64,000 nucleotides of DNA from Paraspadella gotoi (taxonomy: Eukaryota > Animalia > Chaetognatha). This document shows positions 1-62,429 of this stretch, in pieces. The notes beneath the pieces were generated by a model, which saw only the letters and a list, made by a program, of their open reading frames with translations, was not told the DNA's origin and searched no databases. The DNA is taken from the NCBI GenBank assembly GCA_051294375.1, contig CM119265.1, positions 22,712,591 through 22,776,590 on the forward strand. The letters are read 5' to 3'. Position 1 is the first letter of the stretch; each line of letters opens with the position of its first letter. Both the position numbers and the translations under genes were made by a program.

Positions 1-3000
1 GCGGAATCAGATTCTCTCCTCGGGAACTCCGGGAACGATCGCTTACCGACGCTCATCCACCGACATTCAATCCGAAGATCGATCGCGAGAAAGCCAGCCA
101 TCGCCCCGGCCGCCGGAGACCGATGCCAAAGCTGGAATGCTGTCTTCCATGTCTTCTGTTTCGGAAACGTCGAGTCTCTCTTCGGTGGCGCCGGATTTGC
201 CGTCCTTGTCGAATCCACTAAAGCTCTATCAAGAGGCGAGCCCTATGACCAGTAGCATCTACGGGAGCCTCGATCACGATCACCGGGAGGACCTGCTGCA
301 AAAGGGCGCCCTGGGTGCGGAACAAAACTTCGGATTAAAGCCTCAAGCCTTAACGACTTCCGCGAGTCATTATTCGGTAGAACAATTCGAGATGGTCGCC
401 AGCGGCGCCGACACCGGATTAGGATCTTTGGGTGGAACTTCTACTCAACCCACGTCGCCCGTCGGTGACGAATCCTTGTTCCGACCGATCAAGGAAGATT
501 CCATCGATTTACCTTCGCCGAGTTTATCTCGCGCGACGACAATCGATTCCATCTCCGACACTTTCTCCCTTCTGGATGAAGTCGAGTTTCCGCCCCCTTC
601 AACCATGCCTCCTTGTCCCAGCGGACTGTACGGTTCCCTTCTCACGCAATCCTTTGGCCCACAGGGTCGAACCAATACGGTTTCTTCGGCTTTTGGGACT
701 TTAATAGGAAAAGGTGCCTTTGGCTTAGGGGCCAGCCCGATGGCGCACGAAGTTCCAAACTCTGGTACTCAACCAAAGTGTCCCGAAAGTGTATCTCTAG
801 CCTCTCACGGTAGCCGCCGATCATCCAGCGAAGCCAGACAATGTTTGTTGGAAGTAAATCACCTTGCGCTTTCAGAGATGGATCTTTTCAGCGGAGTTTG
901 GGTTCTCGTCGATGAAGCCGAGGACGAAGAATTGGACGATATTCCCGACGAGCTCTGTTTTGCCCGAGGATCTGGCAAAGGGATCGATTTTGTCATCCGA
1001 AAAGACTATGGCAAGTTTTTAAAGGATCAATGCCAACTGACTCTCCGCGTGGAACGAAATCTCGAAGGCGCTATTTCCCACTCGGTTCCTGATTTCAACG
1101 TCGCCGGCGAATTGTCTTCTGTTCACTGCTCCTTAGACGTGGCGCAATATCAGCTTATCCGCGGCATCCTCGATCACAATCTAGGCGAGCAGTTCACGCC
1201 TCTCGCCGTCCCCGCCGACTGTCGCTTGCACGATCCGGTCGCGGTCCTCGGTCCCGGTTCATCCGTCTACAAATCCATTTCGATCGCGATCGATTTGACC
1301 AACGTCGACATCGAATTGTTGATTTGTCACGAGACTGAAGACGACCCTCAACCTATTTCATTGGCTCTCATGCATTTGGTTCGATCGCGACTATCGTATG
1401 AATCTTATTCGGATTCTTCGAAGGATGTCGATCTCGTCTCACAGCAGATCCAGATGTTCGACACCCGGTACCGGGACGAAGCGGTCAACAACCGACCCAA
1501 CGTTTTCACTTCCGTTTTACGTCCGAGAGAGGGAACCAAAGCGAATAACGGCCAAGGCTCGGAAGGTACATTGCAAATGGAAATTCATTACCGATCAACC
1601 AAAGACGTTTCTCGATTCACGATATTGTTAAACAACATGAGGCTGATGGGAATATTTGATTGGCTCTTCGCCGTTTACGATTTCATCTTGACGAAATCCG
1701 AGAATCCATTTTATGACACCGATGGACAAATGAAAGTCGAGAAGCCAGCTCCCGCGCCTTCGAAACTTCCTCAAGGTGTGGTCTCGAAGACGACGCTGGA
1801 TTCTTCCAAATCTAAATCTCTTCCCCAAACCGAAACACCTTTTGAACTAAAATTAAACATCACAGAAACTGACTTCGTTGTGCTGGAAAGGCAAGATAAA
1901 CACGACACTTACGCCGTGATCCTGAAAACGACGGCGGTTCTTAATCATCGCCCTCATCACACTGAACGTCCTCTGTCGTGCAGCTTGCAAAGCATCGAGG
2001 TTTTCTCTTGTTCCTTGGGAGCCGAGTCCGATACTGAGTTATCCATCGTGGATCCCATTACCATTACTATGGAAATGTCGCGCAACACCGCCGCCAACTA
2101 TGGCGCTCAAATGGGTCTCCTGGCAGCAACGGAAAATTGTCCAGCTCCGGCTTCTCTCGACATTGCCGTGCACCAGAATCTTCAATTTCGGCTTTCTTAT
2201 TTTGACATCAAACTTTTTTTAGCTATTGCTAATTCTCTCCCGGCGCAAACCTCTTCCGCCGACTCAAAACGAAATTCGGACGCGCCCCTCCCCCCTTGCG
2301 CCAATGCTACGGCCACCTATCGAAGCAAATATCCTTCTTCTCACGTCTCTCGACTCAAAGAGTTTGGCTATTCGGAGGAGGACGTGTTTCGCGCTTTAGA
2401 GGCTTGCAATGGAAATCTGCAAGAGTCTTCCATCTGGCTGCTCGACAACGCCAATCTCCGTTCGTCATCATCGCCGTCAGATTCGGATCAAAAGTTGAGC
2501 GAGTCTAGCAACGGATCCAATCTTTCCGAAATCAAATTCCGATGCTCTTACGTCTGCGTCGTTTTGATCGACGATTGTCAGGATATCGACATTCCCCTTG
2601 CAGAGATTTCGCTCAACAATGTAGACATCGAATATCGGATCTTGGACGTCTCAACCGCACGCGGTTCCGCCACAATCGCCGTCGACTACTACAACCGTCC
2701 TCTCAGTGGATGGGAGCCTTTCGTCGAACCGTGGAAGGCCCGATTTTCTTTAACGCGATCGTTCAAGGCCCGCGATAGTAATTGTTTTAAGTCGAGGGTA
2801 GAGGTACTCTCTGACGACATACTTAATCTGAATCTGACTTCTTGCTTTGTCGATTTGTACCAAGACACTTTTAAGCGATGGACGGAAGACTTTTACGGTC
2901 TCCTCAAGCGCTCCGACATCTTTCCGACGACCTATTCTTCCTCAGAAACGCCGATGGACACCGGAAGCGGGGTTTCAGGCCTTCGGCGCCGAATTCCTTT

Positions 3001-6000
3001 TGTTCCATTCGTTCTCCGTAACAAAACCGGCGTTCATCTTTGGTTCGCCACGATCACTTGCGCCCCCGACAAACTCGCCCCTACCTCGGGCGGCCTTACC
3101 TTTCGACCAGAATTCGTCAACACGGGCGAGTGGCGAAAAGTTGCGCCGGACCAAGAGTTTTCCTTTTCTTTCGAGGATCGTGCCAAACAACGCCATCGCA
3201 ACACTCGCGAGCTGCGCGTTCACCAGGTCGTGGTGCAGGTGCGAGGCTGGAACCACGTTACGCCCGTTTCCGTTGACAAAGTCGGCACCTTCTTTCGTGT
3301 CGCGCGAGTCAAGCAGCCGGAAACGCGACTCCTCGACGTCGGCGCCTCCATGACCAACGGCGCCATCCTTGACTCCCAAGTCATCGTTTTCGACGTGACG
3401 CTGGAAGGCGCCGCCAAGAAAGTCATCACTGTCCGGAGCGATTTGCGCGTGACCAACCGACTTGGTGACGAGATTGAGATCATGCTGGACAAAGGGCAGA
3501 TCGAGCGCGGCGTCACCACCCGCGGCATCCTGCCCACCAAAGTTCTGAGACTTGCCCACGGCGACACTCTCCCCATTCCCTTGCCCTACACCTCGGCCAA
3601 GATGTGGGTTCGTCCCGTGAGCTGGATGGTTGATTTCTGCAATCCTTCCGTCTTCTGGCGGAGGCTCAAACCCAACGAGATCACGGACCTTCAACTCAAG
3701 TGCAACGCGATCATGAAGGAGGGAGACGCCGATGCCGGCGACTCTGCGGCCTACAGGTAAAACTATTAATTAAACAGAAGCCTTTGCAGTTTATTATTAA
3801 TAATTTAGAGCTAGACGGCTTAAAGCAGGTTACGGGAAATAAAATATAGAAATTGATTATTAGGTAAAAAATATTAGTTTATACGTATAAGGTAGGCACA
3901 TTTATATATACTTATAACAATTTATTTTGTTTACAGATTCTGTGTGGCTGTGAGAAAAGAAAACTTCTCGTCAGACCTCTTTGATCATCGCGGTAAAGGG
4001 AACAAAAAATCCGACATGAGCCGAAGCAACAGCGAAGGTGTTTTGAATTATCTTGAGAAATGTTAAACTGAAGTAAATTTTTAATTTTCTTTTTTCTTTT
4101 CTTTCCAGGCAAAAGCCTTTCCCGCCAAGGTGACGGCACCATGAGTCGCAGTAACAGCGGCCATGTCCGTCAGGTCAATGCCCCGACGGCCGCCTCCAGG
4201 GCGCGAACCGCGGACATCAACTCTCTCCAGTCGGGCCACCATCTAGTCCTCGTGCCCACCATCGTCTTCACGAACCTCCTCCCGTGCGAGCTAAACTACT
4301 ACGTCCGGCCGACGAACGTCCGCGGCCGCGCATCGCCGGGCGAGTCCTGCCCGCTCCGCACGGTAGACCTTAACGTCACCCTGGAACTCGGGATTCAATT
4401 AGAAAACTTTCCTACCTGCAAAGAGTTGCACATTCCTCCTGGCACCTCCGACTACCGCGTCATGATTCGCCTCTTCGACGTTAACAACCGTCAGCTCGAG
4501 CTCATGGTGCGCATCAAGGCCCGCAAGGGCGGCGCCCTTAAGCTCTTCGTCTCGGCACCTTATTGGCTCATCAACAAAAGCGGTCTCCCTTTAGTCTTCA
4601 AGCAAGACGGCGCCAAGGTCATCGCTGCCGGGCAGACTGAGGCGCACGAGGCGGCGAGGAGCGTTGCGCCGCTTCTGTTTTCTTTCACCGATCGTGAGGC
4701 GCACAGGTGAGTGAAGCTGGTTTTCTTTTCCATTTTTTCCATCCTTTCTCTATTTTTTCCCCCCTTTTTCTTAAGCATAGTTAATTTTTATATTTAACAC
4801 ATTCGTTTACATTTTTCAGTCTATGTTCGATGCGGCTCGGCCGCGCTCTCGGTTCCCAAGAAGAGGGCTCGACATCATGGTGTCAGCGGTTCACCATCGA
4901 TAGAGGAATCGGCGTCCGCCAAGTGGGTCTCCACTTCGCCGACAACAGACCTCCTCACATGTACAACATCGGCATCGAAGTTCGCCAGGGAAGAGGCAGA
5001 TATCGGTAAGAGAAAAATTCATTTTAAAATAAATAATATAATATGATTTTTTTTTAGCATATCCACGTTTAATGCCTTTTTTCTCACTTTTAACGTCGTA
5101 TTTTCTTTTTCTCATTTTCTGAAAAATGATTATGAATTTTTTTTTCCCAGCGACACAATCTTCGTCTCCTTTTCTCCTCGCTTTATGCTCGACAACCGCT
5201 CGTCCCACCGCCTCGCTTTCCTCCAGAAGCACCTCGTGCCCTCCAACGCGGGATCCTCTAAACCGCCGGGCAGTCAACCCGTTCCGATCGGACAAGTATC
5301 CGCCCTACCCAACTGCACTCTTCCTTACCACTGGTCCCGCGTCGACGAGTCCCAGCTGCTCTGCATTCGTCAGCTTGAAGTGCTTCACTGCAACTGGTCT
5401 GGCGGTTTTAAGATCGACAAAGTTGACTCTTTCCACGTTAACATGCGCGGAGAGAGCAACGTCTGCATCTTTCTCCGAGTGGAGGTGCTCCTCCAGGGCG
5501 CCACCTTCCACATTGTCTTCACTGACGCCGATCAGATGCCGCCACCGTTTCGCATCGACAATTTTTCCGAGGTGCAGGTCATGTATTACCAAACTAACGC
5601 AGCGGACGGTTATCGCACGATGATCAAGCCATGGACCTCTGTTGACTACGCTTGGGACGAGCCTACCTTGTTGCCGCACATGACTTGCTACGTGACCGGG
5701 GGGACGTCCGCTACCTACAATCTTAACTCTCTCGGAGACGGCGACCAACTCTGCTACGAAAACTTCATCTACATCACGTTTCAAGCGACGTTCGATCAAA
5801 GGAGCTCTTGGGCGGGACAAGACCCGAGGTCGGCCCGTCAGGCTGAGTTGCCCCAGCGCGTCGTCGAGTTTGACAAGAATCTCGTTCTCGACGTCGTCAA
5901 CGGGCGCGTTGTCCTCGCCCCCAAGGAGATCGGCAAGCGTTCGCAGTTGTGGCGCATGGACGCCAAGGGTCTTCTCATCCACGAGGGGTCGTCGCCGCCG

Positions 6001-8914
6001 AGGAACCCTCGGCGGCCGGGATCCTTCGCTTCGGGTTCTCCATCTTCGAAGCAGTCATGCTTTGTACTTGACATTGCAGACACCGCGGTCCAGGTGCGGG
6101 ATTTTTTTTAATTTATACTTATTATATACTTAATAATTACTTATTAATTTGTATTTTATTCCTGGTATTCTGATACTTATGATGAGCGGCGTGATCATGA
6201 CGAGAGTTTATGTCCAAAACTTATCATTTTCCTTATTTCAGCCGAGTCGTCAAACGCCTCTCACAATCCGTCGCCCGGAGAATCGACGCGCCTCGACTCA
6301 GACGTGGCACTTTACGGACGATGGACGCCTCCGCCTTAAAAGCGTCGGCGTGCAAAATCTCGTCGTCCAGGTATGCGAAGCCGAAACGCGTGGCATCCGC
6401 GCCGGCGCCCCGGCCGTCCTCGGCCCGATCTTGCGGGGCTCTCACGCTCCGAAAAGCATCCCTCCTGAGATGAACATCGGGCGGGAGCGGATGCGGCCCG
6501 GCTCAGGCTTTCTCGCCGTACGTATCATCCCCGACGGCCCGACGCGGGTGCTGCAAATCACCGACATCCGCAACCGCAGCACCGTCGCTGCGCCGCTGCC
6601 GTTGTCCACGAGCGTCTCGAGTCCCGAAGGATGGCTCGCCGTCGACGAGGAGCTCACGCTGAAGATGGCCAAGAGAAAGAGACGGCCGCAGAGCGAGTTG
6701 CCAGCCACTACATACTTCGTCGACTTGGCTAATGAGATCAACGAATACAACTTGGTGAGAGGAGAGAAAATCGCCGGTTGGTGATTAAGAATAAAACTAT
6801 GTTTTATCACTTTTCTAAAAGCTTTAAAAATATCGTTCAAAAAGCAATTGCCAATTAATATTTATTAAATGTGCCCCTTTTTTAGATCATTGGCCTCACC
6901 AGCGGCATCGGGGTTTCCATCGTAGATTCGTCAGAGAAAGTGGCTGAAGAGTTGGTCTACTTGACGGTTGTCAATATTGAAGTCGATTACCTCTACAACT
7001 CCACTGGCCAGTTCCTTGAACTCAAGGTCGGCAACATCCAGGTGGACAATCAGATCCTTGGGTCCCAGCGTCCAGTCCTGCTGCGTGTCACTCCTGCTGA
7101 CTCTAAGACGGTCAAGGATGAAAGTGTTTCTCCCGATGCGGCGGAGGCGTCGGAAAGTTTCGGCATGGAACCCATCACTTCCAGCATCACCACCGCCATT
7201 CAGATCGTAGCGCAGAAACAGCACGCGCCGATCCATCGCCCGCTCCAAAATGTCGAGATCTATAACAACCTCACCATCTCTATCAAAAGACTCACCGTAC
7301 AGCTTGAAGAAAAACTCCTCTGGCGCGTCTTGGGGTTTATGGGATTAGGCGGCGGAGGCGCAGCCGCGACGAACGCCAACCAGGATGCCGACTATGACGA
7401 GGCCGATCTTAACGCCCAAGTGCAAGCGGCCACGTCTGCTCAAGCCAAACGGTACTACTTTGGTCAGATCAAAGTCATAACCTCGAGGATCAAACTGTCG
7501 ATGCTGACGTCGCACAAGTTACCTCCGGACCTCCTGGCCATCAAGGAATATTGGAACATCCCCATGGTCAAGTTCGAGGACGCCCAGGTCGACCTCGATC
7601 CTTTCATCCGCGTCCATCCCTTCGAAACCTCCGCCTTTCTCCGCGACTCAATTTTCAAACACTACGAGGACGAACTCAAGTCGCAGGCGGCCAAGATTCT
7701 CGGATCCATCGATTTTCTCGGAAATCCGCTTGGGCTTTTCAACGATATCACGGATGGATTATCCGGGCTAGGTTAGGCTGGGGTATTTTCTTTTATAATT
7801 TGTAAATTTTTGGTTTACTATCCCAGTCAGTTTCTTAATTAATTTACTATTCTATCACACGTTTTCTTGTTTAATACGTGTTATTTCAATTTCTATTTTC
7901 CCCTCACCTTCCTTGCAGTAAAGCACGGGAACGTCGGTGGTTTGTTCACCAACGTGACCCACGGCGTCTCCGATTCGGCGGCCAAAGTTACCGGATCTTT
8001 GTCCGACGGGTTGGGGATGGTTGTTATGGACGACAAACACATGGAGATTCGGGAGAACATTCGACGAACGAGGGGCACGGGAACCGGGGAGCATCTAATG
8101 GCGGGCATCAAAGGTTTAGGTGAGTCGAGAGAGAGTAAGAAAGAAAAATACAAATGGCAAGGCAATCATGATTGGCCATCTTTTTCCCACAGGATTCGGG
8201 ATCATGTCGGGAGTGACGTCGGTCATCACGCAAACCTACGAAGGCGCCTCCAAGGAAGGCGTCGAGGGATTTATCACCGGCTTCGGAAAAGGAGTCATCG
8301 GCACCGTTACAAAACCCGCTCTCGGAATCCTGGACTTCGCCACTGGCGCCGCCTCCGCCATTCGCGACCAATCCCGCGGCGGGCTGCACCACGCTCTCTC
8401 CACGGCTGTGGTCCGCCCGCCGCGTGTTTGCCACGGTCCCGGCGGTCTGCTCCCCCGCTACTCTCTCGATGCCGCCCGGGGGCAACTCTATCTCCACGTA
8501 CTTAACGAATACGATTACGGCGAAACGTACGTGTCCCACGAGGAACTCCGCGGCCCTCCCGACAACGTATCCGCCCTCGTCTCCTCGGATCACGTTTACG
8601 TGTTGCGCAAGTCGAGGAGCGGAGCCGGTTCGGACCGGCCCGTGCTGCAAATTTCCTACGCCGAGCTCTACCAGTGCTCCTATCTGGCTCGTGACAACCG
8701 CCATTACATCCATCTCGTGCTGAGGACCGTGCGGTCGGAAAACTCGACCCGCGCCTCCGAGCACAACCGTCAGCAGATTCGCTGCGAGACGCAGAACAAA
8801 GCGCAGGCCGTCGTGCATCAGATCAACTACGCAAAAACCCTTTTTGAAGAAAAACAACTCATGCTGATGCCGATACCCAACGATAGCGAAGATAACGAAT
8901 TTATCGTGGACTAA
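1..8914 (+). CDS. VPS13D: Vacuolar protein sorting 13D, 3' portion (5' end outside window); multi-exon
   Basis: The frame is open from base 2. It contains a UBA domain (LKEFGYSEEDVFRALEACNGNLQESSIWLL), VPS13 motifs (LIDDCQDIDIPLAE, DYYNRPLSGWEPFVEPW, SAPYWLINKSGLPL), the VPS13D ricin-like segment (KRSQLWRM) and a C-terminal ATG2_C/PH region (KILGSIDFLGNPLGL). GT-AG exons approx. 1-3756, 3938-3991, 4109-4707, 4820-5005, 5151-6093, 6242-6776, 6886-7770, 7919-8119, 8193-8914. Confidence 0.95.
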
Positions 8915-9276
8915 AAATTGTTTTTTCTTTTTGGACTTGTTCATTTTTATTCTTTTTTTTTTTACATAAATATTTTTGTGCCTCTTGCCGATAATTAAAA
9001 AAACCGCCTCAATAATGCAAATTTTCTAGTCTTCATAAAGAAAAATTAATGTATTTGAACAAAACCTTAATTTGTCGAGGTTGATTCGCTATTTCCGAAT
9101 AATGCGGTTCGTTACTTTCGAGGATTCTCGTAGTAATTGGTGCTAGTATTAGTTTTATAGAGTAATCGAGATTTTTTTTTTTTTTTGTTGCTTTTTTGAT
9201 TGTAGCCCGCTCATTATTTCTCGTTGCTATCGTCGTCGTATATTTTATTCGTTTCAGGTCGTTTCTCCTATAATAA

Positions 9277-10546
9277 ATGACATTTGAAACAATGTCTGTT
9301 TTTCAAGACAAACGCGCCCAAACGTTGTGGATGGGCGACTTGGAGCCTGAGATGGATGAGAGCTTCATCGCCACCGCCTTTCTGCTCATCCACGAACCGG
9401 TGCGTTCTTTGGTGATAATTTATTCGCACAAGGCGTTCTCCTCTCCCCAACCCCCCCCTTTTGCTCAGATCGTGGCCGTGAGGATCATCAAGAACCGGTT
9501 AACCGGAGACCCGGCCGGTTACTGCTTTGTCGAATTCGCCGACGAGGAGGCCGCGCAGAGGGCGCTGCTTAGACTTAATGGGAAACCCATTCCGGGGAAT
9601 CTCCATCCTCCGCGGAGGTTTAAACTCAATCCCTCCATTAAACCGGAACCCGGGTAAAGATCGTCCAGAAATTCTTTAAAGTCGGCAACATTTAAACGTT
9701 CCCTTCCGAGACAATTCGATTTTATTTTGATAGGGAAGAATTTTCGATCTTCGTTGGCGACTTGACCGACGACGTGGACGACTATGATTTGTACAAGACG
9801 TTCAAAGATCGATTCCCATCCACGAGAGGTCAGTCGAGGAAATTGAATCTATTTTGGTCAACGCGACCTTTTCATCCTTTTAACATTTTTTTACCAGGGG
9901 CGAAGGTTGTCTTGGAGAGCAACGGCGACAGTCGGGGATTCGGCTTCGTTCGCTTTGGATCTCAACACGAACAGATCGCCGCCTTGAGGGACATGCAGTA
10001 TCACACGGGACTCGGCGGACGAGCCATTCGGGTCTCTAGCGCCATGCCCAAGAGACCCTGGCCGGGGACGAGCAGCCCGAGTATGAGCAATCTCACTTCG
10101 CCTCTCGGGCCTTTGCCTCATTCGGTGATTTAGCTTTAGTGTCTCTCTGTTCCAGTCGGTTTTTAATATTCTTGGGTTAATTTTTTTAGTTAGACCACAA
10201 ACCCATAATTTTCTAGGCGTCCCCTTCGCCCATAAGTTCCGGTTCGACCTCTCCCGACACCGGCATCAAGGAGCAACTTCAGTCCCAATGGCAACAGCAA
10301 TGGGTCAACTACTATCAGCAATGGCAGCAGTTTTATCTGAATCAAGCTCAGTGGGCCCAGTGGAGCCAAAATCAAGAGGCGAATAAGAAAGCCAACGACG
10401 CAGTCGTCCAGATGTCGGAGGAAGACGATTTGTTGTCCTTTGACGTAGAGTCCTCCAATCGGCTCAAGCTAAAGATCAGCCAAGATTTCGACGACGAGAT
10501 GCACGATTCTCAGTGGTTCTCGGATTTACTTCGATTTCCCTGCTGA
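9277..10546 (+). CDS. TRNAU1AP: tRNA selenocysteine 1-associated protein 1 (SECp43), two RRMs plus Q/W/Y-rich tail
   Basis: RRM1 [16 protein letters not shown]...AGYCFVEF; RRM2 [14 protein letters not shown]...SRGFGFVRF...[10 protein letters not shown]; C-terminal [10 protein letters not shown]...FDVESSN...[13 protein letters not shown]. Five exons, TGA at 10544-10546. Confidence 0.92.
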
Positions 10547-10809: not shown

Positions 10810-11736
10810 ATGGCTGCCACCGTGGCTCAACAGCAAAACGAGGGTTTCGAGACGATCAAGTATCAGGATTGCGACCTAAAAATCGAGCCCCTCATGGCCA
10901 ACGGCAACGGACATCCGGGCTCTTTGGAACTCTTGAAACCAATTCAGACCAAGTTGGAACCTGGCACTGTCAAAAGCGAGCTCAAAAATGGCAAATGCTA
11001 CTTTTGCCAGGACTGTGGCAAAACATTCAAGGAAGCAGGCAACCTTCGTCGACACAAAGATACCGTTCACGAAAAGCTGAAAAACTTTAACTGCCAGGAT
11101 TGCGGCAAGTCCTTCGGGGAAGCTGGCAACCTTCGGCGGCACAGAGAGACGGTCCACGAGAAAGTGAAAAACTTTTACTGCAAAGACTGCGGCAAGGCCT
11201 TCGGCGAGTGCGGCAACCTCCGCCGGCATAAGGCCACCGTTCACGACAAAATGAAAAACTACTTTTGTCAAGATTGCGGCAAAGCTTTTTCCGAAAGGGG
11301 AAACTTGAAGCGTCACGCCGACACCGTTCATTCCGGCAACAAATCAGCGGCTGCGCTCAAGAAGGCGGCAGCCTCGGCGGCAAAGGCGACGACGACGACG
11401 TCCTCGGCGACCCCGGTCTCATCTGTCTCCATCTCCGCGGTTCCGGTCCCCGTCTCTCTCCCGCCCGTTACCACCTACGCCGAAGTGAATCAACATCATC
11501 CACAACAACTGAATCACCTGGTGCCGCCCCCTCCGCCCCCGCAAATCCAGCCCTTGCAGGGAGATTCGGCGCAATATTGCACGGTCACGACAATCATTCC
11601 AGTGGTCACCTGTCTACCCAGTCAGCAACATCCTCAATCTCTAACTCATCCTCAGGTTTTGACTCATCACCCGCATCACCCGACCCTTACTCATCATCCT
11701 CATCCTCAAATCATACAACCCCATGCACATATGTAG
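10810..11736 (+). CDS. Intronless C2H2 zinc-finger protein: four near-identical 29-aa fingers plus Pro/Gln/His-rich tail
   Basis: Four repeats of C-x2-C-GKxFxExGNLxRH-x4-H with EK(L/V)KNF/DKMKNY linkers; AATAAA follows the stop at about 11776. Confidence 0.9.
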   Translation: MAATVAQQQNEGFETIKYQDCDLKIEPLMANGNGHPGSLELLKPIQTKLEPGTVKSELKNGKCYFCQDCGKTFKEAGNLRRHKDTVHEKLKNFNCQDCGKSFGEAGNLRRHRETVHEKVKNFYCKDCGKAFGECGNLRRHKATVHDKMKNYFCQDCGKAFSERGNLKRHADTVHSGNKSAAALKKAAASAAKATTTTSSATPVSSVSISAVPVPVSLPPVTTYAEVNQHHPQQLNHLVPPPPPPQIQPLQGDSAQYCTVTTIIPVVTCLPSQQHPQSLTHPQVLTHHPHHPTLTHHPHPQIIQPHAHM

Positions 11737-14557: not shown

Positions 14558-14580
14558 GTCTCATCGTTGGCGATTTGAAT

Positions 14581-31484: not shown

Positions 31485-33515
<2,031 letters not shown>

Positions 33516-49100: not shown

Positions 49101-49816
49101 TTGGAAAGCGGCCAGATCGTCGGGCGCAGCGCCGACCTTTTTCCGTTCGATGGGTCGGTTCCTCGACGGCGGTTTGATGGCGAATAACCCGACGCTCGAT
49201 GCCATCACCGAGATTCACAAGTGCAACGTCGCCAAAAGTGAGGAATAAAAGATTTGGAATGGAAACCGGGTTGGTAAAAAAAAAAATATAAATCCTTCTT
49301 TCCTCGATAATAGAAAGGACGGAGCCCAAGTGCGACGTTCGTCCACTGGGCGTAGTCGTCTCCCTCGGCACCGGACGACCGCCCATCGTCCCCGTCAAAA
49401 CAATAGACGTCTTCATGCCCGAATCCATGTTCAGCTTGGAGACGGCGAAAGCGGTGTTGGGGGCGAAGAACCTGGGCACGTTGCTCGTGGAGCAGGCCAC
49501 CGCTGCTGACGGTGAGGGTTTTTTGGGATTGGGAGGCTGTTGTTATTGAGCCGTGATGGTTGTTTAGAATTGCGGAGGTCTTTTCTTGTCCAAAGGACAA
49601 CCAGTGGACCGAAGTCGCGCCTGGCTCTCCATGATGGGCGTGCCCTTCTTCCGTTTGTCCCCGCGTCTCTCCGAAGACGTTCCCCTCGATACAACCGACG
49701 ATAAACTCCTCATGAAGATAATGTGGGAGACGAAGGCTTACATCCAAGCCAACGCCGACGCCTTCGTCGACATGGCGCTGCTCCTTACAAGGGACCCGTC
49801 CACGCTTTGCGCTTGA
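46114..49816 (+). CDS. PLA2G6: Calcium-independent phospholipase A2 beta (ankyrin repeats plus patatin domain)
   Basis: Multiple ankyrin repeats (TPLHWA, TPLHLAV); patatin motifs [21 protein letters not shown] and [11 protein letters not shown]; about 15 exons. Confidence 0.94.
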
Positions 49817-50367: not shown

Positions 50368-53300
50368 ATGAAAGGGATGGGAGATACGTTCGGCCACGTG
50401 GAAACCCGCAAGAAACCTTGGGATCCCCCGGAAAGGCTGGACCCTGCGAGGGAGGAAAACAAGATCGTTTTTGCAAAGGTATAAGTCGATTTGTCAATTT
50501 TTTGTTGTTGATTTATTCGTTATTTTTTTATTTAAAAAAATCTCCCATTTGTTCTTAAAACAAAAAAACCGAGGACCAATTGTCTCGACGTAGCCTCTTC
50601 TATTTTCCTCTTCCTCTTCCTTTCAAACCCTCTTCCCCGTTGTTCATTGTTGAAGCTTGGGGCTTTTGTTTTGAGGCAATATGGTCGACATTGACCCGCG
50701 ATAACCCTGGTCGTTTCATACAATTTTAACCCGATAAAAACTGCTACTTATGTGTAAAAGATAAAACATTTCTAAATCTTTTAAACTACAACAATACTAC
50801 AAAAAATCTATGAAACAATTTGTTATATTAACGCTCTCTTTACTCAGGTGGAGATCGATCCCAACTACGAAGACTACCTGACCCAATTAGCGGCTCGAAA
50901 CAAACACTTGCGACGCCTGCGCGCCAAGGACGAGCGTGGCGTAGAGTTGGAGCGAAAGGAGCGCGGCTTCACCATCTACGTCAACGGCGCCAACGCGGAG
51001 AAGCGACGCCCTTCCAGAACGGCCCCGGCGTCCTCGCAGGACTCGGACGTTGTCGATGGTAATCAATAGTTGAGGGGCGGGGGGAGGAAGGAAGTCAATG
51101 TAAGTAAAAAAATTATTTGTAAAGGTGATTTCTTAATTTCTCAGATCCTCGTTGCCAAACGGCACCGGAGAGGCGTCGCGAGCGAACGCCGTTCACTATC
51201 TCCGTGCCGACCCCGCGCTGCAAATGGCGCTGCGACCACGAGGTCGGCATCCGGACGCAGAGCGGAAAGAAGCTGAGAGTTCCGGCCTCGGCCGTTAACC
51301 CCGACGAGGCGGAGGGCGGTGAGAGAGAGGGGGAAGAGGGAGAGGAGGCCGAGGAGGAAGTGAGGGAGATTCGATCTGCGATTAAGCCGGAGGAGAATGA
51401 GGAAGAAGAAGAGGAGCGAGAAGCCGATTCGAAAATCGGTCTCAGTCTCGACGACCTCCGAATCCTTCGTCAGTCGTTGGATCTCGAGTTGAGCATCAAA
51501 CGCGTCATGGATTCCTTCACCGAAGAGATACTCGACGATCAGATCGACGAGGAGATCGATGGTGGGTCGGGATCCAATGTCGCCGTCGTCGGTTCTACTC
51601 GACTGAGGAATTCAACTCTAAAACTTTTAAATGTATTTTCGTGTCAGGATACGAGAGCGACTTTTTGGAAGAATCGACGGAGACGTTGTTCGCGCCTTCC
51701 GGATCCTCGAGTCTTCTCCCCGATTCACTCGTCAACGTCGTCGACGACGAAGTCGTTTTTCTCGAATTCTCTCAATCCGAGTCGTCGGCGCGAAGGCGAA
51801 GCCGCGACCTTGCCACGCCCAGGAAAAAAACACGGGGTAAGTATAGCGAACTGGGTAAGGCTTTGGTTACCGTTAAATCTAATTTCGAGGACCGTGCATT
51901 CCCTTCAGACTCGCTCGAGCCCAACGGCGTCATTTCAACGCTACGCGAAACGCTCGCCATTCACGCGACGACCACCGGCTCACTGGAAGCGATCGCCGAT
52001 TCTGTCAGCGAAAAAGAGGCGTCCTCGGAGATTCAAGGGGAGCCTCTGACTTTACCGTCGCTCGCTTCCAAACCGGAGGGCAGTTGTAGCCTGGACGATC
52101 TTAACCAGTTTCGCGGTGCGTAATGCTTAATTTTCTTTAATGTAGAGAGAGAAATTTTTTGTCATCATCGGCGGATAAAATTTCCCTTTTTCCGTCCCAA
52201 AGGCAAAGAGAGAGAGAGAGGGAGAGGGAGTGCGAGAGCGAGAGCGAGAATATCGATTATTTCCCTCGGCCTTGGCAACGCTATTCAGTATTCATACATA
52301 GTCTGTGGTTTAAATTGTAACATGTAACTTGCGCGGGCGCTGAGAAATATTGATGGACGGGTCTATTTCGAACAAAGAAACCTTTTGTTGCGAAAAATAG
52401 TTTTTCTCCTTTCAAAGCAGAATCGTTTTCGGGAGGAAAGAGAAGAAAAAGCGTCGCCCTTCCCGTCGTCCCTTCCCGACCCGCTACAGCTCGTAAGTCA
52501 ACGTTGTGTAATTATAACTAATATTAACTTATTTGATGTTATTTCGATTGGCTAATCGTAGTGGAAAAGGAAACTCCTTCTGACGGCCATAGGATCGAAG
52601 ACCTCTTGGATGCTATCAACGCTGAAAACGAAACGGCGTCGATCGCTCGCGTTTTGGCGGCGCCCGCTTCGTCATCTTCCGCACCCGATATCCTTCGCGA
52701 CCCATTCAGTCACCGGAGCGCGGCGTTGGCGGCGTCGCCGTCGTCCTCCGACGCCATGGACGACATGCGAGAGACGTCCGCGAGCGCGCCGTTGGAGCGC
52801 CTCGAGGGAGCCGTTCCCGGTAGATGTGAAGTGTCCTCGACGCGTCCATCTTCAGTGGGCGTTAATTCGCAAAGACTTTCCGTCGAAGATAAATTAATTG
52901 ACTCTGAAAAAACGACGGCAACAACAATAACAACCTCTACTACGGCGTCTTCTTTACCCCTTCCTTCCCTCGGCACTTCGCCTCCCTCCAAAGACGGGCC
53001 CAAACCCCTCCCTTCCTCTTCCCCCTCATCCTCCGCCGCCGATGATCCTTTATCGGTTGAAGTCCGAAAGTCTTTGGAGAAGCTCTCGTCGAACGCGACG
53101 CTCGTGCGAGATCGCGTGCTTAAAATGGACGCGTCGCAACAAGTCGTCTTTCTCAAGGTTTTGGAGCGGCTGGAAAAGGCCTTGACTCCGGACGTCGAGG
53201 AGGACGATAAGAACGATGGAGACGACGACAAAGACGTTGAAGCGAAGGACGAGTGGAAGGAATCCTCGACGGCAACGACGACCATGATGACGACCTCCGG

Positions 53301-55576
53301 CGAAGACCTCAACGCCTTGGTGACGACGAAAATCGCCGAGGAAGTCCGACAAAGGTGAGTGTTTGCAGAGAGGGCGGTGAATGGTAAAGAAACAATACAT
53401 AAAAAAAAACTGAAAAGGTGAGAAAGCATCTTTATAAAACTAAATGGATTGTATTTATCGACGCTTTTTTCAATTTTTCTCTCAAGTCACAAGTGTCTTT
53501 CGAGAGATCCGCCATCGCCCCATCAATCCGGCGCCACCATCAGCGTCGATCTTCTTTCGGCTTGGGACGACGGCGAAGAGATGGGTCTGACCGAGATTCA
53601 AGTGTTCGACGCGCGGGGGCGGTGGATCATTCTCAGATCGGACGCTCTTTCCGTGGATGGAGCGGAAAAAACTTCGGGTTTGTGTTGACTTTTAGGTTGC
53701 ATGTATTGTATTTACGTGAGTTGTACTTGTACTTGTACGTGAGTTACCTTTATTTTTCTCTTCCACTGCCATTTATTTTTCAGGTCCCCTGGGAATGCTA
53801 GTTAATCGGCATCACAAGACTACGAAAGACAGAAATATGTGGACGACGCGTTTCTCAAAAACGTGCCCCTGTCCTCGGGTGCAAATCTCTTTGGACGAGC
53901 GGACGTCCAAGCGCGGGGTGTCGCGAATCTCCGTCTGGAATTTCAACGGCGAACGACTCGATAAATGCGTCAAGGATGTGAGAATATTTTATCAGGACGT
54001 CCTTGTGTATGAGGGAATTTTAGAAAAAGGTTTGTTCTCATGAAACTTAACTGATTCCGTTGCATCTCGGTAAATTTTTTATCTCCTTTTTTTAGGATCC
54101 GGAAATCAGATTTTGGATTATGGTAACGACATCCCGGTTCTCGTCGCCAACGGTTGCGGCCGCGACGAAAACGACGACGACAACGACAAAAACGACGACG
54201 ACGTTTCTCGCAGCGCGACCAGGTGAAGCAAATAAAAGAGAAAAGGGAAATCGATATTCGTCTCCACCAAGTTTACTTTTCTGGTTGGGAGAGATAGTGT
54301 TCGTAACAAAGGAAAAAAACTTTAAAAAAAAATAAGAACGTGTTTTGATTTTAGGACGTTGGATTACGTCGACGACGGCGTCGGAAACATTCTTCGACCC
54401 GTCGTTGAGGAGAATCTTGTGGAAGAGAAAACGCGGCAAAAACTCGTTCAAATCGTGGAGGATATCACGGAGGTGAAAAAAGGGGGGGAAAAAATCTCTA
54501 CCTGCAAAGTTGCTACTGTCGTCATTTTACCTGTCGTTTTCATCGCAAAGTTATTATAATTTATTTTCGAACGTTTTACCAGACCGACCCGGTAAACGCC
54601 GTGTCTCCCTTTCCCCCCGTTCCCTCGCCGAAATCTTTGGAAAAACCGGAGAAACCAAAGCTTGAAGAAAAAGTCAAAAAGCCCAAGTCTAAGGCCAAGG
54701 AAAAGTCTCCGGCTAAACTACCGGCCAAGACTCGACCCAAGAAAACTCTCATGGCGAAAAAACCGTCGCCAACGACGAAAAAGAGTTGGACTTTCGGGTT
54801 CAACCTTCACATGAGTCAAGATCCCGTGGAAGAGGCGACTCCGGAAACCGGCCTCGCCGACGGTGTGGAATCGGGTCTGAACGCGGCCCAACGAGGGGCT
54901 GGAGACGACGACGACGACACCAAGGAAGAAATGGAAGAGTCTCTTTTCGATCAACTCAAGAGTCTCAACTTGAAGTCGGAGCAGGAAACCGAGGACGGCG
55001 GAGGTAAGGACAAAGTATGTAGTTAGTTATCATATTTTAATTTACTATTTACTTTCCAAAATCCATTTTTCTTCAAGACATCCGCACCATCCTCCATCCC
55101 TCGGAACCTCTGCTCGAATCCGACGAGGAAAGTCGCATGATCAAGAGTTGGCTGAAGGAGGACGAGCGGATTCCCTTCGACTTTGACGAAGATCCGAAAC
55201 CGAAGACGCAGCGACCGCAGAGCTGGCGGCGAACTCCGGGATTGGGTCCGGGTGAGTCGAATTTGATGGCGGCGGATAGTATAGAGTCGTTATTTTAAGG
55301 ACAAGGTTTTTTTTTTAACAGAAACTAGTTCATCCGGGCACGTCGAAAAGATTCCTGAAGTATCGAAGGATTACTTAAAGTGAGTTCAAAGGGAAACGTT
55401 TAACGATTTTTCGAATTACCCCATAATCGTTTCTTTGCCCGCTGCCCATTTCAGCGTTGAAGAAGTCGAACGGACGGATTCCATCTCTACCATCAGCATG
55501 CGAACTTTCTCGCCGCTTCAGCCGAGTTCCTCGGAGTTATCCATCGACGGTCGCGGGATGACGCCGTGGGGAAAGG

Positions 55577-55647
<71 letters not shown>

Positions 55648-57028
55648 GAGTTTTTAAAATCCTTCCTCATGCTGGGTTCACTCATTTAAAGTAGATCTTT
55701 CTCTTTTCTAGTCGTTCGATCCGCTGGAGTCGTCGTGGAACTCTCTCAACGCCTTTCAGCAAATGCACAGAGGTCAGATCTCCATGGAGATCGACGGTGA
55801 TGTGGTGGACATGATGATGCAGACGAGATACAGGCAGCGCGAGACGCTTTCACCTAGTGAGCCAACAAGTTGACCTTCTATGAATAAGATTGCATTCTCT
55901 GTTGGGCTTTATCTTGTTTATTTTAAACCTTATTCTTGTAGGAGAAGATCCCACGAGAGACGTTCCAATTTCTCCACGTGTCGCCTTTCCTTCCAAAGTC
56001 GACGAGAACATCGTCGAGCCTAACGAACGCGTCGCGTGCGAATTCACCATCCCCGAACTCCCCGTCGGATCCTTTCTCCAAATCAACATCCGATCGACCT
56101 GGGGAGACACCCACTACCTAGGCCTCAACGGGGTCGAGATATTCTCCAGCAGCGGGGATCAGGTAGGATGGGTTGGTGAGGCAAGATCGGGATCGAAGGA
56201 AGACTTCGAAATGTTTTTTTCTTTTGTTCGAAGGTTGAGATTGTCGACGTCTCCGCCGATCCTCCGGACATCAACATTTTGCCCGAATACCACGACGGTG
56301 AGGATAATGTGGGGAAGACTCGGACAAATCCAAAATGTACAAAGAACGCTAATTTTTGAGTGACTCATCTTGAATATCAGATCCCCGCGTCGTGGCCAAT
56401 CTATTCGACGGCGTCAATCGAACAACCGACGACATTCACATGTGGCTCTGTCCATTTACTCCAGGTTAATTTTCCCAGATTTATTACAAATGTAATAAAA
56501 TGTAATAATATAATAATAGTTATTAACTGACTTTGTAAACTCAATCAGGCGAAGATCATGTGATCAGCGTCCAGTTCCGCCAAGCGGAGGAGATCGCCAT
56601 GATTCGTTTTTGGAATTACAACAAGTCCCGTACTTACTCCTTTCGCGGGGCGAGATTCGTCGAGGTTTCTCTCGACGCCGCCCTCATCTTTAAGGGGGAA
56701 ATCGCCAGGGCGCAGGGCGGGGTTATAGGTGAGGGAGAATGGGTAGTTGGGTACTGTGTTTACCGGATAGGACATGGTAGGGATTCCAATCTTTAGCGTC
56801 ACACCTATCGTATTTAAAACGAATTCGCATCTTTTACTAGGAGGGACGGAAGCATTCGGCGACACGATACTCTTCACGATGGATGAGATGATCCTCGAAC
56901 GCGTGGCAGAGAACGACGAAGCCTTTGACGCAGTCGACGAGGATATACCCAATGGTCTCGTGGGACCCTTTGATATGCACTCTGAGGCGCCCCCCCAGTG
57001 GCCCGTCGAGGCGCGGAGCAAGAAGTAG
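50368..57028 (+). CDS. KATNIP: Katanin-interacting protein (KIAA0556) homolog, ciliary; apparently C-terminally shortened
   Basis: YEDYLTQLAARNKHL...ERGFTIYVNGAN; DUF4457-like segments (SAWDDGEEMGLTEIQVFD...ISVWNFN; NIRSTWGDTHYLGLNGVEIFSSSG, ADPPDINILP, DGVNRTTDDIHMWLCPF, MIRFWNYNKSR, AFGDTILFT). The first exon (50368-50478) is inferred from a phase-compatible splice. Confidence 0.85.
55581..55645. repeat. (GA)n microsatellite in a KATNIP intron
   Basis: About 32 GA units directly after the donor GTGCG. Confidence 0.95.
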
Positions 57029-57432: not shown

Positions 57433-58253
57433 ATGGGTAAAGTTCAACCAAAAAAGTTCGGGGAAATGAAAAAGATGTTGAAATTGACCGACATCAGGAT
57501 AAAGAAAGAGGAGAGACAGAAGAAGCGGCGGAGACGACGAGGAAAGAAAAACGCCGAAGGGTAAGTTGTGGATTCCGTTGGAGGATTGGTAGGTAAACTT
57601 GATTCAATACGATTCTACCGAGTCATTCCCATCTTCTCCAGCGACGACAACGGAAGCTCGCGCATGAAGATTCAATCCATTCCTCAGTCCCGATCATCCA
57701 TGTTCTTCACCTACAACACCAACCTGGGTCCCCCGTTCCACGTCTTGGTCGACACCAACTTTATCAACTTCTCCATCCAAAATAAACTGGACATCTGGCA
57801 GTCGATGATGGACTGCCTCTACGCCAAATGCATCCCTTATATCTCCGACTGCGTCATGGCCGAGATAGAAAAGTTGGGCTCCAAATTCAAGGTGGCCATG
57901 AGGATTGCCAAAGATCCCCGGTTCGAGCGCCTTCCCTGCATGCACAAAGGAACCTACGCCGACGACTGCATCACGCAGAGGGTCACGCAACACAAGTGCT
58001 ACATCGTGGCAACGTGCGACAAGGGTTAGTATATTCTTTAAAGGAAAAAAACCCCAAAAATATATACGTATGTATATGTATATATGTGTATAATATACGT
58101 ATGTATATTATATATTGTATATGTATGCATTTTCTCCTTTCAGATTTGCGGCGCAGAATACGAAAGATTCCTGGCGTTCCCATTATGTACTTGAAGGAGA
58201 GACGCTACACGATCGAGAGAATGCCGGACGCTTACGGGGCGCCGAGGGAATAG
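57433..58253 (+). CDS. FCF1: rRNA-processing PIN-domain nuclease FCF1/Utp24
   Basis: [77 protein letters not shown]; 3 exons. Confidence 0.97.
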
Positions 58254-58486: not shown

Positions 58487-60261
58487 ATGTCTTCTTTCGA
58501 ATCGTCCCCGGGTTTTGCCCTCAACGCGATCCGTCGTTTTCGTTCTGAATTCGGCGTCCCATATTATTCGACTCACTCGCGTTCCGCGTTGCCCGAATAT
58601 AGTACCCGTCGGTCGCGGACGTTTTTCTCCGACGAGCGCTTCCGTGAAGATGATTCGCGCAAGCGTCTATGGCCGTGCGCCTCCGACGACGATGCCGCGA
58701 ATGCCGAGCCTTGCACCAAGCGCCGAATTTTTGCCAGATCGACGATCGGCTTTTCCGTTTATCAGATGACACAGAGGGTTTCCATGGCAACGCTGGAACG
58801 CGTCTTTTCGCGTTACGGACACGTGCAGCGCGTTTTAGCCCACCCGAACTCCAATGGTTTGTCTGGTCTGGTCGAGTTCAAAGAAGCTCGCTCGGCGGAG
58901 GAAGCCATGCTCGGTCTGCAGGGAAGATGTATTTATAACGGGTGCTGCCGACTGCAGCTCATGGACGCAGGCGATGGGGATTACGGAAACCAAGAAGCCT
59001 CCTGGGAAGAGCCGACGCATCTTCAACAGGGGCTCATCGATGGAGATTGGGGGCACAAAGAAGGTAGTGGAAGTTGCCCAAGGGGTTTTTTCTGGATCGT
59101 ATTCTATGAAATTGAAGCTTTTTCATCCAGCTCTGCCTGAAAGTTTCGACGAAGGCCACCACTCTGTCCTATTCGTATCGGGTCTAAACGAACACGAAGT
59201 GTCGCCGCACAAGCTCTTTTCCATTTTCGGAATTTACTGCGACGTCGTCAAAGTAAAGATCTTCTTTCACGATAGGACCAGAGCCGTGATTCAGACTGTC
59301 GACCCGTCGCAAGCTGAGACGGCTAGAACATTCTTAGGTCCTGGCTGGTCGGATCGGTTGGTTGGTTACTGCTTAGGTTGATTGATTATTTAGTCCGGTA
59401 TGGCAAAGGGAAGACATGTGTGATGCCCGACATCTCCCGACAGCTGGCGCTCAGGGCTTTGGACCTGCACACTTAACCGGCGTGACCGTGAGGGGAGTAT
59501 CTATGGGCGTTTATCGAAAATCTCTCCAAGTATCATAATTAACAGGTAGTGGACGTCTCCGATCGAGTCGATATAAAAAGCATTTCTTGCAGACGGAGTT
59601 TCGCTTTGGCGGAAAACAATCAAAGTGGTCTACTCGAAATTCCCCGAAATTCAGTTGACGAGAACTGAGGAGACGCTGGCCAAAAACTTTGAGTTCGTCA
59701 GCTATCCTCTTCACCGGTTCAAACCGCCGCTGGGATTCAATAATCTACAGGTGGTCCACTAGTTCATTTGGGTTTTCAATTGGTATATATATATATTTTC
59801 TAGTTTTCGGCCTTTAGATTCCCAAGATTTACTAAGTAGATAGTAAATTTGGCGAGTAAATTCGAGAGAATTTTCGTCTTCCGTTTCCCACCCAGAATAT
59901 AACGGCTCCGTGTTCCACCCTCTTCGTGAGCAACCTTCCCTCCTCGGCGACGGAGTTCGATCTCCAGCGCCTCTTCGACATTCCCGACTCTTTCCGAATC
60001 CCTTCGGACCCATCGTCTCCGTGGCCGTCGTCGTCGTCCGAGTCGTTTACGCCTCCGTCGCGGGTCAAGTCCGTCCGATTCCTCCCTCGAAAGAAGTCGA
60101 TGGCCTTCGTCGCTATGAAGGACGTGCAAAGCGCCTTCGACGCCATCGTCGACGTCCACGCCTCCCAGGCGATGGGCGGCCGCCCCATCATAGTCAATTT
60201 CTCCAAAGTAGAACTGGACGAGTTCAATCGTTCCGGGTGGAGGACGTATTTTCGTTGTTGA
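58487..60261 (+). CDS. Divergent polypyrimidine-tract-binding protein (PTB/hnRNP L family) paralogue with RRM2-RRM4
   Basis: RRM2-like LQGRCIYNGCCRL; RRM3 SVLFVSGLNEHEVSPHKLFSIFGIYCDVVKVKIFF; linker YPLHRFKPP..NNLQNITAPCSTLFVSNLP; RRM4 MAFVAM...MGGRPIIVNFSK. Four exons; the start codon is uncertain. Confidence 0.8.
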
Positions 60262-60525: not shown

Positions 60526-62429
60526 ATGAACCACCGGCCTAAAAGAAAGGATGACTCTTCGACGACGGCGTTGGCTGCCGTCGCCTTCCAGGATCATTTG
60601 GTGCAAAGTCTGTCCTTAGACCTTCCTGGGTCGCACAAGCGACGCAACGCTTCTAGAAAGAGGCAACCTGCTAGAACCAAGGTTTTTTCTTCTATGTGAT
60701 TTACTATTTAATTCGTCAATTATAAGGAGTCACTTTAAAGTTTTAATTCTTCACCTCTTATTCATTTCTGTCGTCATAAATATTAACCTAACATTTATTT
60801 AGGTCGTTTCGTACGAGAAACCATGGTTACAAACGGCGGCGATATCAGGTAAATTTTACAATATTGGACTCATTATGATCGATGGGTTTTCGCGATCCGT
60901 TTCTCTTCGTTAAAGGAGACAAACCGCGCCCCGCGGGAGAATATGTTCTTCCCTCCGACGATCGTAAGCCTCCGACGTTAGCTGAAAAGATGGGACTGGT
61001 TGAGCCGCCCAACGACGTCAATCTTTCTGGTAGGGCAAAATAACAGAAAGCAAGACTTGGTCTTATAATATGATTTATTGTAAAAGACAAACTTCGCCTT
61101 GAAGAGTGTTTTAATTTCTTCCTAAAGAAAAGGAGTGGTCTTCCCTCAAGACACTGGCGACGGAACGCATGGCTTTTGCAACCCCTTGTCCCATTTGCAA
61201 AGAGGACATAGGCGCTCAGGAGCAGCTCCTTCTCAGCTGCTCACACGTCTTTCACCGAAACTGCTTACAGGTTATAAAATAATAAAAATTTGTTAGAGGG
61301 GGATTTTTGTGGGCGATGCCGGCGGGCGCCGGCCGGGCGGGGGATTTGTCGTCGTCTGGTGGTCTAAGTTTCGAATCCCGAATCCTCCTTAGGCTTTCGA
61401 ACGCTTCATGGGGAAGAAAACTTGTCCGCTCTGCCGCGAAGAGCGATACCAGGCCAGGGTGGTGCATGAAGGGACCAAAGGTTACAGAGGCAGATGCGCC
61501 ACCAGGATTCAGGCGGCGTGGAGGGGATACATCGTCAGGTGCTGGTACGCCAAGCTGCGAGAAACTGTTCCTCCCAAGGACGAAAGATTGCGGAAGGCCT
61601 TTTTCGAGAAGCGACTTCACGAAATTACGGATCGCCTGCTCAAATCTGTCAACTACGACGTCAACAAGTGATTAAATTTTGGTCATTTAACCGCAACAGG
61701 TTAATTCACTCTGTCGACGTTATTGGATCGTATTACTGGAAAATGTGGATAAACTTAAAAACTATAACTTAACGAGCAATATTTGTTATATCGTTTTTCA
61801 CTTTATTGCGACGATCGCTTTGAATCAGATTTTTTCTGGCCCAACTTGCTTTTAAACAATCTTTTTATAGCATTAACGATGACTCATTCTCAATCCATTC
61901 AGGTTTCTAGACGAAATCGACGCGAGCCTCGAAGCGAGTCGTCGGGTTTTCCGCGACTTGGACCTGTTGACTGGCGGGACCGCGGAAGAGGAAATCGACT
62001 GGGAAAAAGTTCAGGTGGAGTTATTACTTTTAGAAGCAGATTCGTGTTATAAATTAAGAGCACAGATAAAACGACTTTAAACTTTTTTCTCTACAGATCC
62101 AAGCCCTCGAACGAGAAGTGACCGATTGTCCAATTTGCATTACTCCCCTGAGAGTCGATTTCGAATCCCCGCGTGACGAGGACGAAGACGAAGACGAAAG
62201 GCAACAAATTGAACTGAATGACGTCGCCTTTGACGTCATGGACCCCGATACTCGATTCGGTGACGACTCGAAACGAGAACGAATTCGTTGGAGAACCAAA
62301 ACAACTTGTCTTCTCTCTTGCTCTCACCTTTTTCATAAAAACTGTCTCGAATCTTTCGAAAGGTTTTCGGCGGACGTTCGGCCTGGCTGCCCAATCTGCC
62401 GGTCGCCTTACGCGAAGAAGGTCCTGTAA
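60526..62429 (+). CDS. RNF32: RING finger protein 32 (RING-IQ-RING)
   Basis: ALAAVAFQDHL; EYVL...TLAEKMGLV; RING CPICKE...LLSCSHVFHRNCL...CPLCR; IQ motif ATRIQAAWRGYIVR; second RING CPICITPL...LLSCSHLFHKNCL...CPICRSPY. Confidence 0.92.

Follow-up and report, generated by a model that had tools for sequence, protein, structure and literature searches.

The 64,000-nucleotide (nt) stretch of Paraspadella gotoi DNA analyzed here (contig CM119265.1; hereafter the window) carries 17 functionally unrelated host genes, arranged head-to-tail on the + strand between positions 1 and 62,429. We propose that transcription of this run yields a single long polycistronic pre-mRNA, or a few of them, cut by spliced-leader trans-splicing at an AG in front of each gene, an interpretation to which we assign a probability of roughly 0.72. 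The leader-spliced operons known from animals are short, holding between two and nine genes. The kind of system is familiar; what is new is the length, together with a hint that long one-strand runs typify the phylum.

The original prediction, made from the letters of the DNA alone, had placed all 17 genes on the + strand, and this is confirmed. A Pfam match on that strand is present for 16 of them, and the exception, CHCHD2, is matched by solved CHCHD2 chains in the PDB (Table 1). On the minus strand, none of 150 open reading frames (all 135 of at least 74 amino acids, and from the 48 shorter frames in non-coding zones another 15) reaches the Pfam cut-off, and there is one sub-threshold bacterial match. 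Pfam was used for this strand test; a two-strand gene finder followed GC content and did not discriminate between the strands. A short-exon gene hidden in the 10-kb intron of ZMPSTE24, or in the 100-N gap within it, would escape the open-reading-frame test. The 16 stop-to-ATG gaps given previously were reproduced exactly (362, 263, 659, 803, 215, 167, 544, 416, 875, 546, 466, 910, 551, 404, 233 and 264 nt), the values resting on provisional ATGs that were picked partly to agree with the earlier ones. They range from 167 to 910 nt with a median of 441 nt, and because only three are shorter than 250 nt, the description of these spacers as tiny was overstated. Gene spans occupy 54.8 of the 62.4 kb, and introns are short (median 82 nt, n = 47), with the exception of the last ZMPSTE24 intron.

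The figure of 1 in 65,536 that had been attached to the common orientation ignores the number of places looked at. With independent orientation, a genome of 21,072 genes should by chance contain 0.16 runs of this length, and at the published P. gotoi operon-link rate 1.1; when many windows are scanned, some 17-gene one-strand runs must appear by chance. The spacers themselves contribute an acceptor signal: the best score of an acceptor-like AG within 130 nt before the ATGs averages 6.07, compared with 4.18 ± 0.70 in shuffled sequence (2 of 1000 shuffles reach it). Orientation alone is less surprising than the original figure implies and this enrichment is modest; the case rests on RNA.

The RNA consists of spliced contigs from one sequencing run, X1, which contains 0.84 of the sequence words of positions 5001–15000; two other runs, X2 and X3, contain next to none of these words. 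The RNA nature of X1 was judged from its behavior. GT..AG introns are gone and spacers are covered, and the introns of TRNAU1AP, ILF2 (the first) and DEF8 have zero cover, the bin depth being equal to the exon fraction multiplied by the contig depth. Contigs were examined over positions 8800–14700 and 26400–46399, which include 12 of the 16 junctions; the four to the right of 49.8 kb lie outside. Spliced contigs cross, bridge or abut 10 of the 12, where no bare stretch exceeds about 40 nt. Specifically, five junctions lie inside one contig, two are spliced over in cis, and three show a break at, or at most 16 nt from, the next AG. The remaining two, MRPS31|ZMPSTE24 and ILF2|HMGCS, are obscured by repeats; the latter is mostly without cover at about 33500–33885, where T-runs and a (TAT)n repeat occur, and this stretch is counted neither way.

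The individual contigs are themselves multi-gene. A 4311-nt spliced contig spans TRNAU1AP, the zinc-finger gene and MRPS31, and hence two junctions; a 1433-nt one spans ZMPSTE24 and CHCHD2 and ends at 27970; a 7049-nt one runs from 36900 to 44471 through DEF8 and the ABCB-type gene; and a 4102-nt contig joins GMF to PLA2G6 over the 910-nt spacer. Because contigs cover or abut 10 of 12 junctions and leave little or no untranscribed DNA, shared transcription of neighboring genes is supported. A candidate unspliced cover of P4HA from 27981 was dropped: the two flat bins match in exon content (370 and 371 nt), and the hidden-joint count fits a spliced contig.

At the junction between VPS13D and TRNAU1AP, the VPS13D contig, 18,612 nt long, has the G of AG 9257 as its last base, and the next contig begins at 9258 with no overlap. 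No bridging contig was found at this junction, and its bin depth of 127.6 is reproduced without one. The AG is the same acceptor that headed the examples in the original prediction, and a contig end would fall on it by chance about once in 362. A cis-spliced intron in a 5' untranslated region (UTR) would be expected to produce a fork at an upstream donor rather than an end at this AG, and an exact end and start at 9257|9258 requires transcription through the junction. Three more upstream contigs end 10, 9 and 16 nt before the AGs at 27980, 31422 and 44487, the last of these being the best-scoring acceptor for GMF in place of the AG at 44590 named earlier. Intercistronic DNA is thus 0 nt at 9257|9258 and at most 16 nt at three other junctions. 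Neither AATAAA nor ATTAAA occurs within 45 nt before the contig end in any of the four cases.

In the mechanism that we propose, RNA polymerase II would transcribe successive genes in one pass, and the spliceosome would attach a capped leader to the AG ahead of each gene. The 3' terminus of the upstream message would be made at, or a few bases before, the same AG. With the 3' end at the acceptor of the next gene, nothing truly intercistronic would be left and the gaps would consist mostly of 3' UTR, as in Ciona and Spadella. Resolution of the precursor is likely to be incomplete or slow, which would account for the common two- and three-gene spliced contigs. One or two junctions would, in addition, have a weak donor, located in the upstream 3' UTR, that takes the acceptor in cis instead.

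Two spacers do contain cis introns. The first begins 86 nt past the P4HA stop and ends 62 nt before the ILF2 ATG, and the branch in which it is unspliced stops at 31413. The second begins 15 nt past the HMGCS stop; its joint lies on the HMGCS coding contig, and its acceptor exon is the start of the DEF8–ABCB contig. Molecules accordingly span the interval between the HMGCS stop and 36930, and others run into ILF2 from 30997. The predicted long polycistronic unit or units thus gain support from the 10 junctions crossed or abutted and from the exact abutment at one of them, but the accompanying claim that the acceptors lack an upstream donor fails at AG 31422 (donor 31027) and AG 36900 (donor 36335). 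A spacer-donor matrix did not predict the donors that are used.

Several observations weigh against our proposal. The acceptor enrichment, clear over shuffles, is weak when the reverse strand or the starts of 3' UTRs serve as the comparison (p ~0.07 for each). No leader letters are present on the contig that starts at 9258, nor among the loose ends displayed (6 of 51 and 6 of 12); a leader joint would be a short, low-depth link from a hub common to thousands of genes, which assembly could prune. The abutment is exact at one junction only. T-runs break X1 contigs, as at the GMF–PLA2G6 contig, whose computed end near 49971 lies just past such a run, and the three near-AG ends could therefore be pyrimidine-tract artefacts. 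The start of P4HA falls in an A-run that the contig alignment skips, and the GMF contig start, placed at 44483 by depth arithmetic, lies 5 nt before the exon start rather than at it. At the ILF2 joint the upstream side measures no more than 30 nt and could be a private non-coding first exon with its own promoter. A two-gene contig is not proof of a single transcript, as an overlapping 3' UTR and 5' region would merge too, and contigs carry no information on strand or expression level. Finally, the RNA comes from a single run, X1, whose RNA nature is a guess and which possibly shares its source with the window.

Searches for the leader in the window itself gave a null result: none of seven weak Rfam matches reaches the gathering score, and no leader RNA gene was found there. 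Two N-terminally extended relatives of FCF1, compared by eye, show nothing resembling a translated chaetognath leader.

The alternative that survives best is that these are separately promoted, monocistronic genes in a compact region, with or without trans-splicing of their outrons, whose 3' UTR or read-through overlap was merged by the assembler and whose common orientation is chance or historical. Gaps of this size can house a promoter, about one 17-gene run per genome is expected at published chaetognath operon rates, and contigs do not distinguish overlap from one molecule. The FCF1 genes of relatives also lie on contigs of 0.9–1.6 kb, the size of a single mRNA, and AATAAA is present in 9 of the 16 spacers. 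The signal is not clearly enriched, however (13 occurrences compared with 8.0 ± 2.7 in shuffles, with 60 of 1000 reaching 13), and separate promoters would have to be reconciled with the lack of any uncovered stretch longer than about 40 nt at 10 of 12 junctions, with an end and start at 9257|9258 that demand transcription through the junction, and with the like one-strand layout of a second chaetognath region, a bacterial artificial chromosome (BAC) from Spadella. We consider this explanation unlikely.

Stable polycistronic mRNAs, formed without trans-splicing and with the downstream frames translated through leaky scanning or re-initiation, a mode reported in green algae, would agree with the two- and three-gene spliced contigs, the two cis-spliced spacers and the missing leader letters in the displayed ends. 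Such mRNAs leave the cut exactly at an AG unexplained, and re-initiation is made unlikely by the long upstream frames and by additional ATGs, of which four precede the DEF8 start codon from 36901 onward; together with the single-gene size of the relatives' FCF1 contigs, this renders the explanation very improbable. Least probable of all is an artefact in which DNA in X1, or transcript-guided assembly joins, fake transcribed spacers or gene adjacency: the guessed nature and possibly shared source of X1 and the 100-N gap in the window would allow it, but intron cover is zero where tested, the window retains all its introns and mobile elements, and its sole gap is intronic, the intron being spanned by a contig.

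The closest counterparts of the polycistronic, leader-cut run proposed here are the operons of chaetognaths and of the tunicate Ciona intestinalis. In P. gotoi nearly half of the genes are trans-spliced and 18% lie in operons, defined by distances below 250 bp, of which the longest has nine genes; there is no operon-specific leader (PMC12460157). The word 'strand' does not occur in the main text of that paper, and such runs may already stand, split up, in its operon table. In Spadella cephaloptera, the poly(A) site of RPS14 lies three bases from the acceptor of PCNA, and additional clustered genes that share their orientation are mentioned (PMC2481426). Their 158-kb BAC, which was selected for carrying an operon and is a biased sample, has 24 rows in Table S5: 19 on +, four on − and one with no orientation given. 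Every one of the 14 named host genes is on +, across about 120 kb; of the minus rows, three are labelled transposon and the fourth, beneath such a row, carries no label (PMC2481426). The window shares with these operons unrelated housekeeping genes on one strand and an upstream 3' end beside the downstream acceptor (PMC2481426, PMC12460157). It differs in holding 17 or more genes over 62 kb, compared with the maximum of nine under the 250-bp rule, and in that its leader is one we infer.

In 19 Ciona operons, the base that receives the upstream poly(A) is the acceptor AG's G, and the leader is attached to the base after it; 16 of 18 lack AATAAA (PMC1488885). The likeness to 9257|9258 extends to the end on the acceptor G, the next RNA starting from the following base, the lack of a nearby AATAAA, and probably the occurrence of unresolved dicistronic RNA (PMC1488885). 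Ciona operons mostly hold two genes, however, and up to six or seven (PMC7986045); the window is not tunicate by the VPS13D test described below, and its abutment is exact at one junction. The largest operons reported elsewhere have nine genes in Macrostomum and eight in C. elegans (PMC8629364). Co-oriented conserved genes with gaps below 1 kb are common to the window, to Macrostomum and to the Caenorhabditis SL2 type (PMC8629364, PMC7986045), but the latter two leave about 100 nt of intercistronic DNA, as against 0 nt at the one exact junction here and at most 16 nt at three others, and multi-gene spliced contigs, which are the rule in the window, are rare in them. We thus find in the window not the roughly 100-nt spacing of the SL2 type but the features of the Ciona and Spadella type, namely co-oriented unrelated genes, spacers covered by RNA (in one run), a 3' end at the AG and no AATAAA.

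How many promoters serve the run is a separate matter. That all 17 genes are under one promoter is doubtful; contig depth varies along the run from 74 to 486, which speaks neither for nor against it. If they do form one unit, it would comprise at least 17 genes, roughly double the largest animal operon reported among the sources compared. The unit may extend past the window on both sides. On the left, the part of the VPS13D contig beyond the window measures 10,363 nt, exceeding what the 2,070–2,380 upstream codons of homologs need. On the right, an AG and ATG at 63976–63981 follow a 1.55-kb spacer. This spacer (62430–63980), the longest, has CT microsatellites and several strong AG tracts and ends at the ATG at 63981; it is a candidate promoter, unit boundary or lead-in to an 18th co-oriented gene.

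A bolder suggestion, which we offer tentatively and would not yet favor, is that chaetognath chromosomes are organized in trypanosome-like directional clusters, each of tens of unrelated, intron-rich genes over 60–120 kb or more, with few promoters and leader-cut messages; an equally speculative part of it is that the 250-bp operon rule has chopped such clusters into short operons. Trypanosomatids have similarly long one-strand runs of unrelated genes, but theirs comprise about 8000 genes in about 150 polycistrons genome-wide and are nearly intron-free, as opposed to 62 kb of intron-rich DNA here. A literature search of titles and the beginnings of abstracts, mostly outside subscription papers, returned no report of directional gene clusters in an animal. 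The one-strand run of 17 genes, with RNA over most of the junctions examined, and the one-strand Spadella BAC suggest that some animals are near the trypanosome mode, in which control moves from promoters to RNA processing. Junctions with zero intercistronic DNA also make the question raised by Ciona testable, that is, whether the trans-splicing cut creates the upstream 3' end, as well as whether neighboring messages are mutually exclusive in each molecule. Very long contigs elsewhere in the X1 transcriptome could be multi-gene units as well. Each of the two examined stretches is touched by one contig of 24,984 nt, probably via a repeat.

The phylogenetic position of the encoded proteins was assessed mainly with VPS13D, whose best matches among those listed come from Owenia, Capitella, Lineus, Branchiostoma and Lingula (39–45% identity). 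In a FastTree phylogeny of 39 rows (the window plus 38 of 120 listed matches, chosen to span phyla), it branches as the sister of a group made up of annelids, nemerteans, brachiopods and molluscs (support 0.994; 0.949 for those without the window). In a topology test on this single gene, with 20 rows, 14 fixed placements and 2000 replicates (the program advises more), a position sister to Lophotrochozoa is best in the approximately unbiased test (0.96); a placement with Ecdysozoa (0.13) or as the sister of Protostomia (0.11) is retained as well, and the 11 others are rejected, including all deuterostome ones. The laxer Shimodaira–Hasegawa test does not reject placements inside Lophotrochozoa. 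This result fits the protostome region outside Lophotrochozoa in which chaetognaths are placed (PMC12460157), and makes a chaetognath source likely. Weighing against that assignment, gastrotrichs, gnathostomulids and scalidophorans, which are absent from the tree, would fit the placement as well. The closest FCF1 relatives are 91–94% identical and the best named one, from Lingula, 81%, and a metagenome scan with a close FCF1 relative returned three distant loci (50–67% identity). No named chaetognath protein is among the listed FCF1, VPS13D and MRPS31 matches.

The features are collected in Table 1. Beyond the Pfam family level, the names DEF8, GMF, PLA2G6, KATNIP and RNF32 are those we presume to apply, and TRNAU1AP, ILF2 and PTB-like are names given by the original prediction.

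Table 1. Features of the window, by position.
Feature	Positions	Strand	Basis and remarks
VPS13D, 3' part	1..8914	+	Pfam VPS13_M, UBA, VPS13_VAB; homologs named VPS13D; enters from left edge
Acceptor TTTCAG|G	9235..9258	+	Likely trans-splice site and upstream 3' end; best-scoring acceptor of its spacer
RRM protein, TRNAU1AP-like	9277..10546	+	Pfam RRM_1; 4 introns spliced out in RNA contigs
C2H2 zinc-finger gene, intronless	10810..11736	+	Pfam zf-C2H2; within 4311-nt contig
MRPS31, intronless	12396..13796	+	Pfam MRP-S31, E 8.7e-50; within 4311-nt contig
MITE-like (miniature inverted-repeat transposable element) repeat	13845..14560		Fills MRPS31–ZMPSTE24 spacer; inverted arms 13924–13961 / 14453–14490
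ZMPSTE24 / CAAX protease	14600..26945	+	Pfam Peptidase_M48_N, M48
Broken retroelement, not a host gene	17081..22239	+	Pfam RVT_1; inside ZMPSTE24 intron, sense orientation
CHCHD2	27161..27832	+	PDB CHCHD2, E 9e-14; candidate acceptor AG 27132; on contig with last ZMPSTE24 exon
Prolyl 4-hydroxylase alpha (P4HA)	28000..30940	+	Pfam P4Ha_N; 13 exons; candidate acceptor AG 27980
Spacer cis intron, 396 nt	31027..31422	+	Joint 31026->31423, GT..AG; upstream side 30 nt
DZF protein, ILF2-like	31485..33515	+	Pfam DZF_N, DZF_C
HMG-CoA synthase (HMGCS)	33932..36319	+	Pfam HMG_CoA_synt_N and _C; 8 introns spliced out in RNA
Spacer cis intron, 566 nt	36335..36900	+	Joint 36333->36900, GT..AG (cut +1)
Rubicon-homology protein, DEF8-like	37195..39400	+	Pfam RH_dom; spliced inside 7049-nt contig
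ABCB-type transporter, full-size, intronless	39947..44140	+	Pfam ABC_membrane x2, ABC_tran x2; 7049-nt contig
Cofilin/ADF protein, GMF-like	44607..45203	+	Pfam Cofilin_ADF; best acceptor AG 44487
Ankyrin-patatin phospholipase, PLA2G6-like	46114..49816	+	Pfam Ank, Patatin; 829-codon chain
DUF4457 protein, KATNIP-like	50368..57028	+	Pfam DUF4457, three exons
FCF1	57433..58253	+	Pfam Fcf1; homologs
Multi-RRM protein, PTB/hnRNP-L-like	58487..60261	+	Pfam RRM_1, RRM_8, RRM_5
RING + IQ protein, RNF32-like	60526..62429	+	Pfam zf-RING_2, IQ
Candidate 18th gene start	63955..64000	+	Pyrimidine tract, ACAG at 63976, ATG 63981; 6 codons only inside window

VPS13D is represented by a 2635-codon open chain in nine exons, one of which (2–3756) exceeds 3.7 kb and is unusually long compared with exons of about 100–200 nt elsewhere in the window. 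P4HA forms a 564-codon chain whose frame is intact only with a GC..AG intron at 30216–30328. The protein search with MRPS31 returned two fish proteins as its only matches. This gene, the zinc-finger gene and the ABCB-type transporter are intronless beside intron-rich neighbors; the last is possibly a retrocopy inserted into a transcribed run, where a promoter of its own would be unneeded. In ZMPSTE24, the coding sequence at 15717–15822 contains a 12-nt tandem repeat that interrupts the RNA contig. Its last intron, of about 10 kb with mobile elements and the 100-N gap, is spliced, as a contig loose end matches the exon near 16417–16446.

The repeats are of several kinds. The MITE-like repeat has TTAACGGTT-rich inverted ends and is plentiful in X1 contigs, at depths up to 1449. 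The broken retroelement has inverted arms (17081–17223 / 22061–22203) and internal complementary pieces, and we take it to be DIRS-like. The Spadella BAC table includes a tyrosine recombinase (PMC2481426). Farther along the ZMPSTE24 intron, the segment 24800–25510 is GC-richer, with short + open reading frames and the look of a retroelement remnant, has no Pfam match at 1e-5, and runs into the gap at 25511–25610. The spacer intron at 36335–36900 likewise contains a repeat (depth 244; other copies have internal deletions), and it may have come about as a means of splicing an insertion out of the HMGCS–DEF8 junction.

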